IMG/VR virus record: IMGVR_UViG_2737471819_000015
DNA: 4,073 bases
Source: a virus
Taxonomy: Duplodnaviria > Heunggongvirae > Uroviricota > Caudoviricetes
Reading direction: 5' to 3' (one strand)
How positions within the stretch are numbered: the stretch's first letter is position 1; every line of letters begins with the position of its first letter. The translations under genes were made by a program, and so were the position numbers. A model generated the notes under the pieces. The model saw only the letters and a list, made by a program, of their open reading frames with translations, was not told the DNA's origin and did not search any database. Shown here one piece after another: positions 1-3,788 of the stretch.

Positions 1-278
1 TCATTCACCGCCTTCTGCAGTACTTCCGGATCGTAGTCACGACCGTCACGCGGAACAGGGATATGGCTTACCGCCTCCTTCACCATCTGCTCAAGCATCG
101 GACGCACATCATCGCCCGTCACGCACTTCTGTAATACCACAGACAGGGAAGCCAGTTTTTCTTCAAACGTTTGTGCCTGCGCGGCTATTTTCCCCTCAAA
201 TGTGCGCTGTAAATCCGCCAGCACTGCGGAAAATTCTTCACCCAGCGCACGGATAATGGACAGTTCACGTTCATTCAT
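1..278 (-). CDS. Hypothetical phage protein, N-terminal fragment (first 92 codons; continues beyond the window start)
   Basis: ATG at 276..278 overlaps the portal stop (ATGA arrangement). Translation MNERELSIIRALGEEFSAVLADLQRTFEGKIAAQAQTFEEKLASLSVVLQKCVTGDDVRPMLEQMVKEAVSHIPVPRDGRDYDPEVLQKAVN... The frame stays open to the window edge. GGGGGA lies 10 nt upstream of the ATG. Identity not recognised; by position it could be a minor head / head-morphogenesis or adaptor protein. Confidence 0.55.
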   Translation of the reverse strand, partial: MNERELSIIRALGEEFSAVLADLQRTFEGKIAAQAQTFEEKLASLSVVLQKCVTGDDVRPMLEQMVKEAVSHIPVPRDGRDYDPEVLQKAVN

Positions 279-1639: not shown

Positions 1640-1806
1640 TCGCCATGCTCCGCATCACGTTTCTTTTTCTGACCTGCCGGACGTCGCACCGTGATGTACT
1701 CCGCCTTTCCCAGGCGAACCAGCACCTCCGCACACGGCTGTGCCACATCACGGATATCCCCGGCCCGGGCATCATGCGTGCCCTGCAGATATCGGATCTT
1801 TGCCAT
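1585..1806 (-). CDS. Hypothetical small protein (73 aa), uncertain gene; overlaps the portal start by 55 nt in another frame
   Basis: ATG at 1804..1806; translation MAKIRYLQGTHDARAGDIRDVAQPCAEVLVRLGKAEYITVRRPAGQKKKRDAEHGECGTFYGEPEKTRNQDVT. Codon choice looks gene-like (CTG, CAG, ATC, GAT, GCG), unlike the Arg/Trp/Cys-rich third frame. A consensus SD (AAGGAGG, 1837..1843) lies upstream but is separated from the ATG by the 22-nt hairpin plus 8 nt. No homology is recognised. Confidence 0.3.
   Translation of the reverse strand: MAKIRYLQGTHDARAGDIRDVAQPCAEVLVRLGKAEYITVRRPAGQKKKRDAEHGECGTFYGEPEKTRNQDVT
1640..1651 (-). promoter_or_regulatory. Ribosome-binding site of the portal gene (GGAG, 8-nt spacer, ATG)
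   Basis: Minus strand reads GGAGcatggcgaATG; GGAG at 1648..1651, ATG at 1637..1639. Confidence 0.5.
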
Positions 1807-1814
1807 AACCTGTT

Positions 1815-1836
1815 ACGGGAGGCACACGCCTCCCGT
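1815..1836 (-). other. Perfect 9-bp GC-rich inverted repeat (stem-loop) immediately downstream of the capsid stop codon
   Basis: Plus 1815..1823 acgggaggc and 1828..1836 gcctcccgt are exact reverse complements separated by a 4-nt loop (acac). On the mRNA strand it reads ACGGGAGGC-GUGU-GCCUCCCGU. No U-tract follows on either strand, so it is not a classical intrinsic terminator. Confidence 0.6.
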
Positions 1837-1850
1837 CCTCCTTATCAGAC

Positions 1851-3212
1851 TCAGCCGCCGGACGCACTGCCATAGTTCACTCCGGTGATCACCGCCACCG
1901 CCGCGGTACGGCGACGACGCCAGTTGATCCAGCGCTCCGCACGGATGGCCACGCTGCCTGTCTGGAACATGGAAACCAGCTCCACCGGCGACGGCGTGGT
2001 ACTGTCGCCGGTCGGCTCAGACTGCATTTCCAGTGATGCCTCGCGGGACATATCCACTGCCACGCCGCCGTCATCCGCCAGATAAATATCCGGGGCATTC
2101 ACCAGCACCAGCTGGTCACCCACGTACTGGGAGACAATCACCGGCAGCCCCTGGAAGGAGCCACCCAGCAGGGTCATGTCCGGGTATTCTTTCTGACCCA
2201 GCGCATTTTTACGCATGGACAGCGCCAGAGCATTGGTGCTGGACATCAGCCAGACCGCACCGGTGGGCTGCAGGTTTGCTGCAACAAACTGTCCAAACGC
2301 CGCCTCTGCATCCGCATCCGGGTTACCGCTTGAGGCCGTGCCCTTCACATCATGGGTGATGGACGCCGGGGAGACATCTGCCACCGCCGCTTTTTTCGGG
2401 TCCACAAAGTCTGTATCCAGACGCGCCACCACCGCTTCCGCCAGCGCATTACGGACCAGTGCATCAGCAGCCGGACTGGAAAAACGGATCAATTCTTCCG
2501 TCAGTACCGCAATGGCCGACACCTTCGCATGACTGAAGGTGATGGATTCAAAATCAAACTTCGTCAGGGGTTTTGCCTTACCCTCACCCACCCAGCCGGC
2601 AGCACCGCCCGACACCTGGGCGTGCACACGGATATTGAACGGCACCTGACGAAGTGCAGGGATCCCGCCCTGACCAAATCGCCCGATAATGGTCTGAGGA
2701 CGCAGGTAATCAATAAAGTCCTGTGCGTATTCCTGATATTCAGACAGGCTGCCTGCCCACTGCGGATCCGTGGTGGTCCCCGCGCCCACTGCCGATTTCA
2801 GGACATGATGCAGACGACTGTCATCCGGATACTGACGACGGGCCACTTCCAGGGCTTCAGAGCGGACACCTTTAGCCGCAGCCAGCGATTTGGCAAAACG
2901 TGCGAAACCAATCCCCTTATCCAGTTTCTGCTCCACACGGATCACAGGCGCAGAAGCCACCGCGGCCACATTCCCGTTACCGGCCTGTTTCACCGGCTGC
3001 GCCGTGGCGGCCTTACCGGCTTCCAGTTCACGCAGGCGCTTCAGGTGCGCATCCACCTGACGTATTTCCGCTGCGGTGTTGTCGTAATGCTCTTCCTCCT
3101 CCACATCCAGCGTGCGCCCTTCCTCTGCGGCTTTGGTCATGACCTCCTCAAGGGAGGCTGCCAGTGCTGCACGCTTGTTTTCAAAACTTTTAATCTGTTC
3201 GCCAATATTCAT
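1851..3212 (-). other. Major capsid protein unit with N-terminal delta/scaffold-like segment (residues 193-645 of the fusion ORF), beginning at internal Met193
   Basis: The in-frame ATG at 3210..3212 opens a segment (MNIGEQIKSFENKRAAL...) that resembles the N-terminus of stand-alone HK97-type capsid proteins with a delta domain. It is preceded by AAGGA (3223..3227) with a 10-nt spacer. Confidence 0.5.
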
Positions 3213-3788
3213 TATGGTCTTTTCCTTATGAAAAACGGTTGTTGACTGTGCCGCAGCGCCGGCAGAAGATGCGATTTTCACCACCGGTTTCCGGTTGCCG
3301 GACGCGGCAGAAAACTGGCGGTCGTAAGATTTAATGGTCCGGATGGTGCATTCCGCATTCGCGGGCACGGTGACGGCAGACACCTCCATCAGCTCCCAGC
3401 GCAGAAAATGCAGTCCGCCTCCGTCCAGAAAGGTGTATTCATGAGGACGGAAGCCCACGGACAGCCCCCTGACCAGCCCGGTCTTAATGGCCGCCCAGGC
3501 CTCATCCAGCCTGGCAGCCAGTTGCGATGGCATATCCGGCACGGGCTTCGCCAGTGTTGCCGTGATTTCCAGCCCTTCGCTGACCCGGCGCACCGTACAC
3601 TGCCCCACCGGGCGGGAATGGTCATGCTGCCAGAGAAACGGGATCGCACTGCCAAACTCCGCGCCCTCCGGCTCCAGGATGTCACCATCCCGATCCGGAG
3701 AAGGCGTTGACGCAATCCCGGTGATCACCCGCTCATCCTCACTGAAGGATTTCACCGTCAGCAGGGAGCAGGCCCGTTTAAGAGTCAC
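1851..3788 (-). CDS. Fused prohead serine protease / delta(scaffold)-like coiled coil / HK97-fold major capsid protein (645 aa)
   Basis: Single uninterrupted frame. Residues ~20-155 carry prohead-protease (HK97 gp4-type) hallmarks: IPFLWQHDHSRPVG (His-containing motif), RGLSVGF (candidate nucleophile Ser110) and LMEVSAVTVPANAECTI. Residues ~193-300 are charged and coiled-coil-like (MNIGEQIKSFENKRAALAASLEEVMTKAAEEGRTLDVEEEEHYD...LKRLRELEAG). Residues ~300-645 look like an HK97-family capsid protein (WVGEGKAKPLTKFDFESITFSHAKVSAIAVLTEELIRFS...; C-terminal SVAIRAERWINWRRRRTAAVAVITGV). Strong SD plus GTG start; TGA stop at 1851..1853 followed in frame by further TGA and TAA stops. Confidence 0.85.
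   Translation of the reverse strand: MTLKRACSLLTVKSFSEDERVITGIASTPSPDRDGDILEPEGAEFGSAIPFLWQHDHSRPVGQCTVRRVSEGLEITATLAKPVPDMPSQLAARLDEAWAAIKTGLVRGLSVGFRPHEYTFLDGGGLHFLRWELMEVSAVTVPANAECTIRTIKSYDRQFSAASGNRKPVVKIASSAGAAAQSTTVFHKEKTIMNIGEQIKSFENKRAALAASLEEVMTKAAEEGRTLDVEEEEHYDNTAAEIRQVDAHLKRLRELEAGKAATAQPVKQAGNGNVAAVASAPVIRVEQKLDKGIGFARFAKSLAAAKGVRSEALEVARRQYPDDSRLHHVLKSAVGAGTTTDPQWAGSLSEYQEYAQDFIDYLRPQTIIGRFGQGGIPALRQVPFNIRVHAQVSGGAAGWVGEGKAKPLTKFDFESITFSHAKVSAIAVLTEELIRFSSPAADALVRNALAEAVVARLDTDFVDPKKAAVADVSPASITHDVKGTASSGNPDADAEAAFGQFVAANLQPTGAVWLMSSTNALALSMRKNALGQKEYPDMTLLGGSFQGLPVIVSQYVGDQLVLVNAPDIYLADDGGVAVDMSREASLEMQSEPTGDSTTPSPVELVSMFQTGSVAIRAERWINWRRRRTAAVAVITGVNYGSASGG
3324..3731 (-). 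other. Prohead protease domain within the fusion ORF (approx. residues 20-155)
   Basis: Candidate catalytic His in W53-Q54-H55-D56-H57 (codons at 3618..3632) and candidate catalytic Ser110 in GLSVGF (codon 3459..3461); codons were checked directly against the sequence. Domain limits are approximate. Confidence 0.7.

Follow-up and report, generated by a model that had tools for sequence, protein, structure and literature searches.

A probable hairpin-bridged ribosome binding site at the capsid-ORF57 junction of enterobacterial lambdoid prophages

A 4,073-nucleotide stretch of DNA from a tailed virus (Caudoviricetes; IMG/VR virus record IMGVR_UViG_2737471819_000015), referred to below as the window, carries part of a phage late structural operon on its minus strand. 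Between the stop codon of the capsid gene and the start codon of the next gene, ORF57, lies a short element in which a strong Shine-Dalgarno (SD) sequence, a perfect 9-bp hairpin and the AUG follow one another. This element is probably the ribosome binding site (RBS) of ORF57, split in two and bridged by the hairpin in the manner described for genes 38 and 25 of phage T4. The anatomy, stability, conservation, covariation and fixed geometry of the element, as well as the coding status of ORF57, come directly from the analysis. Five features of a split RBS were found in silico: a long linear gap, a stable bridging hairpin, no alternative SD, a conserved geometry and a real gene downstream. If the assignment is true, this would be an independent split RBS with unusually strong phylogenetic support, the known cases being essentially T4 genes 38 and 25. 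No publication on this particular element was found in a literature search, and it is very likely a new, independently evolved case of a rare known kind.

Organization of the capsid-ORF57 junction

The phage is a Q-antiterminated lambdoid, Shiga-toxin-type Escherichia coli prophage, and positions 1500-2200 of the window are 100% identical to the Stx1-converting phage BP-4795. An earlier note, made from the sequence alone, had placed an SD, a perfect 9-bp hairpin and an ATG in series after the capsid stop, and had reported further in-frame TGA and TAA codons past that stop. Both readings hold on the minus strand, the coordinates of the series to the base. Read in that direction, the junction runs UGA GUC UGA UAA-GGAGG / ACGGGAGGC GUGU GCCUCCCGU / AACAGGUU / AUG, and the gap between the two genes is 44 nt.

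The capsid stop codon UGA (1853-1851) is followed, after GUC, by the two extra in-frame stops (1847-1842), UGA at 1847-1845 and UAA at 1844-1842; homologues have either UGA UGA or UGA UAA. The extended SD UAAGGAGG (1844-1837) shares its 5' end with the UAA, and its GGAGG core (1841-1837) adjoins the hairpin. The hairpin starts 14 nt past the capsid stop, just 3' of the capsid cistron. From sequence and folding, it consists of a 5' arm ACGGGAGGC (1836-1828), a GUGU tetraloop (1827-1824) and a 3' arm GCCUCCCGU (1823-1815). The commonest E. coli allele of the loop is GUGC, and GCGA, GAGA and GAAA (GNRA-type) also occur. A single-stranded spacer of 8 nt, AACAGGUU (1814-1807), then leads to the ORF57 start codon AUG (1806-1804).

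SD and AUG stand 30 nt apart along the linear sequence and 8 nt apart with the hairpin folded. Within 20 nt upstream of the ORF57 start, the sole purine motif is an AGG in the spacer, 2 nt from the AUG, so the spacer holds no usable SD. No strong SD other than the AGGAGG 30 nt upstream occurs within 40 nt of the start.

In the proposed mechanism, the 30S subunit would anchor on the strong SD UAAGGAGG, directly 5' of the very stable 9-bp hairpin. The hairpin would stay folded and be looped out on the platform side of the 30S subunit, outside the mRNA channel. Although 30 nt from the SD along the sequence, the AUG would then come to stand about 8 nt from it (with the width of the helix end to be added), a normal working distance. 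With the hairpin unfolded, the SD would be too distant from the AUG for initiation, and no other SD could replace it. It may be inferred from this arrangement that ribosomes bind with the hairpin folded, as may any effect on the level of expression.

Stability and covariation of the hairpin

Folded alone, the 9-bp hairpin (1836-1815), with eight G-C pairs and a tetraloop, has an energy of -17.8 kcal/mol. It is present in the minimum free energy (MFE) and centroid structures of both a 66-nt and a 181-nt context. With flanks of 40-150 nt, the weakest stem pair has a probability of 0.85-0.94 and the SD is 58-85% unpaired. Across the 4073-nt window this is the sole perfect hairpin of at least 8 bp (loop of 3-8 nt).

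Two other structural roles for the segment were considered and rejected. The free GGAGG could pair with the CCUCC of the 3' arm, giving 5 bp over a 14-nt loop, which is uncompetitive against -17.8 kcal/mol; this pairing is absent from the MFE and centroid folds of both contexts. An RNase III site would need about two helical turns (about 20 bp), whereas the stem has 9 bp and the 181-nt fold contains no longer helix. A search of the whole window with Rfam covariance models, at E values up to 10, returned only two matches, both at chance level and both away from the hairpin.

Covariation was analysed in an alignment of 72 sequences, with controls in which the partner column was slid by 1-3 positions and with 500 shuffles. 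Standard pairs occupy 95.4% of cells, compared with 53-63% in the slid controls. Four pairs have changes on both sides, and the observed values were matched by 0 of the 500 shuffles. The basal pair is G-C in 63 sequences, A-U in six, G.U in two and A.C in one, and the sixth pair is G-C in 54 and A-U in 18. RNAalifold independently finds a core helix of six pairs, three of them compensatory. On the sense strand, G.U pairs occur twice at the basal pair, eight times at the seventh and seven times at the closing pair. G.U pairs fit only RNA of the sense strand, which speaks for a structure formed in the mRNA and against a DNA palindrome.

The last point bears on the proposal that the inverted repeat is a palindromic protein site at the DNA level, or simply a chance or hitch-hiking feature, which is very hard to credit. 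Symmetric DNA sites can likewise show mirrored changes in their half-sites, but a sense-strand G.U pair is an A.C mismatch on the other strand and is asymmetric as a pair of half-sites. The position of the repeat is also fixed relative to the SD and the AUG. As for chance, a hairpin of at least 9 bp arose in just 6% of 300 dinucleotide shuffles of the whole window, and the element persists over a synonymous divergence (pS) of about 0.6.

Folding energy and stem covariation in homologues had both been put forward in the earlier note as checks, and both came out in its favour: the energy of -17.8 kcal/mol goes with pair probabilities of at least 0.85 in context, and the covariation with the paired cells, four double-changed pairs and sense-strand G.U pairs given above. 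Its suggestion that the 30 nt between SD and ATG are too long, and shrink to about 8 nt on folding as at T4 gene 38, is supported by the contact of SD and hairpin, by the compensatory and G.U changes and by the 6-8 nt spacing described next.

Conservation of the element among Enterobacterales

Homologous loci were gathered via the ORF57 protein from species-representative genomes, IMG/VR, metagenomes, exact-protein look-ups and GenBank phages. The deduplicated set contains about 116 unique junctions from more than 12 genera of Enterobacterales, including Escherichia, Salmonella, Citrobacter, Enterobacter, Kosakonia, Atlantibacter, Hafnia and Symbiopectobacterium. All junctions but two share a common layout of capsid stop, short linker, GGAG(G), hairpin, short spacer and AUG; the exceptions are a Citrobacter locus with its upstream half replaced and one junction with an altered SD (GAGG). 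GGAG is invariant in 69 of 69 unique non-E. coli junctions and in 43 of 43 of the E. coli type, and the SD adjoins the hairpin in every homologue.

The stem occurs in two types. Most genera have (A)GGAG-GGCGGGG-loop-CCCCGCC, followed by 7 and sometimes 6 nt. The two E. coli alleles are GGAGG-ACGGGAGGC-GUGY-GCCUCCCGU and GGAGG-GCGGGAGGC-GCGA-GCUUCCCGC, each followed by 8 nt. Across the 69 non-E. coli junctions, entropy is zero at GGAG and at every one of the 14 stem positions (two arms of 7 nt), bar a single double change from G-C to A-U (locus L213). The third codon positions of ORF57 in the same junctions have an entropy of 1.0 bit, and 16 distinct loops are found. A second SD-like motif, GGGAGG, had been proposed to be sequestered in the stem by pairing with CCUCCC. 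This is true of the E. coli-type stem; other genera have GGCGGGG and CCCCGCC instead, and the pairing was rejected as a conserved feature and is probably incidental.

The distance from hairpin to start codon is held more tightly than the sequence that fills it. The 22 spacer sequences of non-E. coli junctions are 7 nt long in 61 junctions and 6 nt in eight, with no other length; in the E. coli type, wherever the stem is intact, the spacer is 8 nt long and has one of three sequences. In all, the distance is 6-8 nt in nearly all junctions, over 25 spacer sequences, and 5 or 9 nt in three. The linear gap from SD to AUG in the non-E. coli homologues is about 24-25 nt. Counting GGAGG as the SD and leaving out the hairpin gives a virtual spacing of 8 nt for both stem types and 7 nt for the short-spacer variants. 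A normally placed SD was found in none of the homologous junctions, the spacers (AUUUUGC, AGUAACUG, GUAAUAC and others) being free of SD motifs.

The design is retained in the most divergent homologues, namely an E. coli locus with 51% protein identity, Hafnia and Salmonella phage FSL SP-016; the stem of the 51%-identity locus is 9 bp long, with two pairs inserted. The exact motif GGAGGGCGGGG-N4-CCCCGCC-N7-ATG is followed by an ORF57 homologue in 120 of 120 IMG/VR matches. A generic scan for the order SD, hairpin and start over 1.3 Mb of related loci found the layout essentially at the capsid-ORF57 junction only.

Upstream of the SD, the linker from the capsid stop measures 2-9 nt in non-E. 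coli junctions and 9 nt in the E. coli type. An SD 2-9 nt past the capsid stop in every measured junction, together with a gap of only 44 nt, would suit coupling by termination and reinitiation. Here the SD would hold ribosomes that have just left the capsid gene, the hairpin would shorten their path, and de novo binding of 30S subunits would be minor. The portal start overlaps the ORF57 stop (AUGA) in other genera, which indicates that coupling is used in this operon. As an account of the element, coupling is conceivable but doubtful. The distance from stop to SD varies, whereas the geometry of SD, hairpin and AUG is fixed, which points to selection on the relation of SD to AUG. Coupling is also a variant of the split RBS and not an alternative to it, because the hairpin must still bridge SD and AUG. 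A relay through a mini-ORF starting at the GUG of the loop (GUG UGC CUC CCG UAA, 9 nt past the SD and in frame with the AUG) was rejected, as type-2 E. coli alleles and other genera have no such start.

The natural alleles make up a mutational series, with basal A-U, G-C, G.U and A.C pairs, stems with one mismatch and spacers of 6 to 9 nt. The exceptional Citrobacter locus (Citrobacter sp. Cu233; L002, about 2950-3003) could serve as a natural half-element control. There the SD and 5' arm have been replaced by unrelated sequence, leaving AAAACCCCGCC-GUAAUGC-AUG, and the gene upstream of the ORF57 homologue is not a capsid gene. The locus resembles a breakpoint within the element, left by recombination or deletion.

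Comparison with split sites of phage T4

At T4 gene 38 a hairpin cuts the spacing between SD and AUG from 22 to 5 nt, and at gene 25 from 27 to 11 nt (PMC3014915; PMC7297116). Mutations that destabilize these hairpins lower translation, and the split site was confirmed by dimethyl sulfate (DMS) probing together with lacZ fusions (PMC3014915; PMC7297116). The two sources summarize work by Gold (1988), Nivinskas et al. (1999) and Malys and Nivinskas (2009).

The window element is like these sites in several respects. Its linear gap is too long (30 nt, against 22 and 27 nt in T4) and is shortened by a hairpin (to 8 nt, against 5 and 11 nt); it lies at an intercistronic junction of a phage late structural operon; and the structure is kept in close relatives while distant ones have the canonical arrangement. 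The two groups differ in that there is no sequence homology between them, the window lineage being lambdoid/HK97-like siphovirus prophages of Enterobacterales. The window stem is longer and much more GC-rich than those of T4, abuts or shares a base with the SD, and apparently derives from a post-capsid terminator-like hairpin. In addition, the T4 sites have been verified by mutagenesis and DMS probing, whereas the window element is known from sequence and computed folding.

Several points weigh against the assignment as a split RBS. The support consists of computed folding and sequence comparison. Folding z-scores for whole segments are unremarkable (-1.8 for 66 nt and -0.2 for 181 nt) because the flanking sequence is GC-rich, and the case therefore rests on the local stem and its conservation, not on global folding energy. 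The aligned sequences are related and recombine, so that independent covariation events are few and haplotype linkage inflates their counts. The stem sequence is conserved beyond what pairing alone requires, and a sequence-specific ligand is possible. The U/A-rich spacers of many non-E. coli homologues look terminator-like, and the hairpin could have been conserved for termination. Ribosomes that terminate at the capsid stop, 2-14 nt before the SD, could restart at ORF57 with no need of classical SD-directed 30S binding. Finally, a 9-bp stem abutting the SD might sterically hinder pairing with the anti-SD rather than help it.

Distant relatives and the origin of the hairpin

Five distant relatives were compared: Pseudomonas PAJU2, Rhizobium RHph_X2_26, Stenotrophomonas SOVA965, Burkholderia vB_FUBS1 and Moraxella Mcat6. 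They encode the same protease-capsid fusion at 37-48% identity, and between it and the portal gene or additional head genes lies a small ORF. Each of the five has a GC-rich hairpin and U-tract after the capsid stop, then a canonical SD 5-7 nt ahead of the AUG of the small ORF. The small ORF of Moraxella Mcat6 is an ORF57 homologue (hhalign probability 87%, E 3.7e-6); for the small post-capsid ORFs of Burkholderia vB_FUBS1 and Pseudomonas PAJU2, homology to ORF57 was not significant. What sets the enterobacterial lineage apart is an SD located 5' of the hairpin and a gap of just 6-8 nt between hairpin and AUG. In the distant relatives, with their canonical order, the latter distance is long and variable, and tight spacing is therefore restricted to junctions whose SD precedes the hairpin.

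These head modules thus generally have a terminator-like hairpin behind the capsid gene. The window hairpin shares the position, the GC-rich stem and the tetraloop of the five, and differs from them in lacking a U-tract, in having the SD on its 5' side and in standing only 8 nt from the AUG. The occurrence of hairpin and U-tract after the capsid gene in distant relatives suggests that, in the lineage of the window, a terminator-like hairpin has probably been taken up into the RBS. It is most likely descended from, or equivalent to, the post-capsid hairpin of related head modules, and the comparison suggests a route in which an SD came to lie 5' of a terminator hairpin, which then joined the RBS. 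In Stenotrophomonas SOVA965 (L257, about 3586-3636), the stem GGGGAGGC-UUCG-GCCUCCCC closely resembles ACGGGAGGC-GUGU-GCCUCCCGU, a likeness that fits either shared ancestry or convergence.

The hairpin and U-tract of the five relatives, placed right after the capsid stop, also favour a different explanation. The window hairpin might be only a terminator, an attenuator or a barrier to 3' exonucleases that keeps capsid mRNA above ORF57/portal mRNA, with SD and spacing incidental. Capsid subunits number in the hundreds against 12 portal subunits, and with this stoichiometry a device of that kind is useful wherever the portal gene comes after the capsid gene. Intercistronic stabilizing stem-loops, such as the repetitive extragenic palindromic (REP) elements in malEFG and the hairpins of the puf operon, block 3' exonucleases. 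Like these, the window hairpin is stable and lies just downstream of the cistron with the most-needed product; unlike them, it stands in a fixed relation to the SD and start codon of the next gene. A T-run (at least 5 T in the 8 nt past the stem) is present in 26 of 60 unique non-E. coli junctions.

The explanation by termination or 3'-end protection alone is nevertheless rather unlikely. E. coli-type junctions have the tails AACAGGUU or AGUAACUG, and a T-run is found in 0 of 19 of them. In the window itself the tail AACAGGUUAU contains at most 3 U in 8 nt and a terminator scan does not call the site, so that a canonical intrinsic terminator was rejected here: the GC-rich stem-loop is present, the U-tract is not. 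Among homologues the U-tract varies, but the SD, stem and spacing do not. In lambdoid phages, Q-modified late transcription reads through intrinsic terminators, and the Q antiterminator is encoded upstream on the same strand in BP-4795, so that readthrough would be expected at this site as well. Termination would also leave unexplained the invariant GGAG at the stem, the 6-8 nt to the AUG and the translation of a selected gene that lacks an SD of its own. In addition to bridging the RBS, the hairpin may shield the capsid mRNA at its 3' end or cause weak attenuation of transcription, a role that is probably secondary because the phage is Q-antiterminated and the U-tract is missing. The alternative offered in the earlier note, a 3' stabilizer or processing site, accordingly stands in part: the terminator-like hairpins of distant relatives make it a probable ancestral role, but the window itself lacks the U-tract.

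ORF57 and its initiation signals

ORF57 (1806-1585, minus strand) encodes 73 amino acids in the open reading frame list, belongs to PHROGs family phrog_829 and is named after the corresponding ORF of BP-4795. The search found 109 homologues, all in Enterobacterales and mostly of 55-56 amino acids. Among 85 unique coding sequences, the entropies of the three codon positions are 0.43, 0.37 and 1.10 bits, and the ratio of nonsynonymous to synonymous divergence (pN/pS) is 0.25. These values mark ORF57 as a real gene whose protein is under purifying selection, and it therefore needs an initiation signal.

In BP-4795, SD-like motifs precede the starts of the other late genes by 2-13 nt. The operon contains two other hairpins, between TerL and capsid and before the tape-measure gene, and in both the order is hairpin with T-run, SD and start; the order SD, hairpin and start occurs within the operon at the capsid-ORF57 junction only. 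In the window, the TerL-capsid site (3827-3810, minus strand) consists of GGACCGCUGCGGCGGUUU and a U-run and is the only terminator-like site called, and its hairpin is followed by AGGAGG 5 nt before the capsid GUG start (3788). The hairpin, SD and start before the tape-measure gene lie at about 12250-12286 of BP-4795 (L001).

Gene callers, and predictors of RBS strength that penalize long SD spacing, will miss or mis-start ORF57. One homologue, P0094 (87 amino acids; L250, 2501-2521, E. coli contig DAXYDF010000099.1), has an annotated AUG within the loop and 3' arm of the hairpin (AAUGCCCCGCC), while the conserved start lies 21 nt downstream (MTRIRYLQ). It was mis-started by gene callers because the RBS is unusual.

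As regards function, Pfam gave no match for ORF57, PHROGs places it in a family of unknown function, and a sequence-profile search of the PDB found nothing meaningful. The sequence comprises a conserved N-terminal domain of 37 residues followed by a basic tail. In the AlphaFold (AF2) model, residues 1-38 form a beta-beta-alpha-beta domain with a predicted local distance difference test (pLDDT) score of about 85, and the basic tail is disordered. The fold is best matched in the PDB by the rRNA-binding N-terminal domain of ribosomal protein bL9 and by the Bacillus subtilis prophage protein YqbF, and many small uncharacterized phage proteins in BFVD match the model as well. The bL9 match has a root-mean-square deviation of about 1-1.6 A over 40 residues at 25-32% identity, with a Foldseek E of about 0.1 and no sequence-level support. 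The bL9 N-domain-like fold predicted for ORF57 is thus marginal, a lead rather than a result.

This lead, with the small size and basic character of ORF57 and a stem sequence conserved far past the needs of pairing, would fit a translational operator. The hairpin would in that case be bound by the ORF57, capsid or portal protein, with feedback on ORF57/portal synthesis. The operator is improbable, however: inner stem and loop differ between ACGGGAGGC-GUGY in the E. coli type and GGCGGGG-GAAA elsewhere, loops vary freely, and the binding is purely hypothetical, the fold match being as weak as stated. A related and still unlikely idea is that the element is a switch rather than a static RBS, with either ORF57 binding its own hairpin or capsid-terminating ribosomes melting or occluding the SD-hairpin, so as to fix the ratio of capsid to portal. 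Binding by ORF57 would control synthesis of both ORF57 and portal; under control by ribosome traffic, initiation at ORF57/portal would fall as capsid translation rises.

Gene and prophage context

All genes of the window lie on the minus strand, in the order 3' end of TerL, protease-capsid fusion, ORF57, portal and the start of the next head gene. The 3' end of the large terminase (TerL) gene, taken from the open reading frame list, occupies 4073-3852. The fusion of prohead protease and major capsid protein (3788-1851, 645 amino acids) matches Pfam Peptidase_S78 and Phage_capsid as well as phrog_617, major head protein. It is 99.5% identical to its BP-4795 counterpart, which is annotated as major capsid protein. 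Of 5426 complete E. coli genomes, 1252 (about a quarter) carry the head module, at a median of four copies, and Stx1, Stx2a and Stx2c phages are among those that have it.

The portal gene (1639-275), identified from the open reading frame list and Pfam, has an AUG that overlaps the ORF57 stop in non-E. coli genera. In the window, ORF57 overlaps portal by 55 nt, and portal has a GGAG of its own 8 nt upstream. Compared with loci L003-L009, L251 and L253, the ORF57 stop has been altered from TGA to GAA in the E. coli lineage, adding 18 codons that extend into portal. The overlap (1585-1639) is specific to this lineage and contains a GAAAAAAC run at about 1612-1605, where a -1 frameshift or slippage during transcription is conceivable.

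A second layout resembling SD, hairpin and start (1550-1587) was found in the E. coli group only. A GAGAGG right after the ORF57 stop (UAA, 1587-1585) shares one base with an 8-bp hairpin that has two G.U pairs, GCGGGCUG-GAC-CAGCCUGU (1579-1561, minus strand); 8 nt further on is a GUG (1552-1550) in the portal frame. This layout could be due to chance or mark an internal portal start.

The portal ORF (454 amino acids) aligns to no more than positions 1-451 of the portal profile phrog_2271, which has 859 positions, and portal is marked as a pseudogene in some records; portal and the ORF after it may be separate genes or parts of one split gene. The ORF that follows it (1-278, minus strand) begins with an AUGA overlap and is likewise called portal protein in BP-4795 (ORF59).

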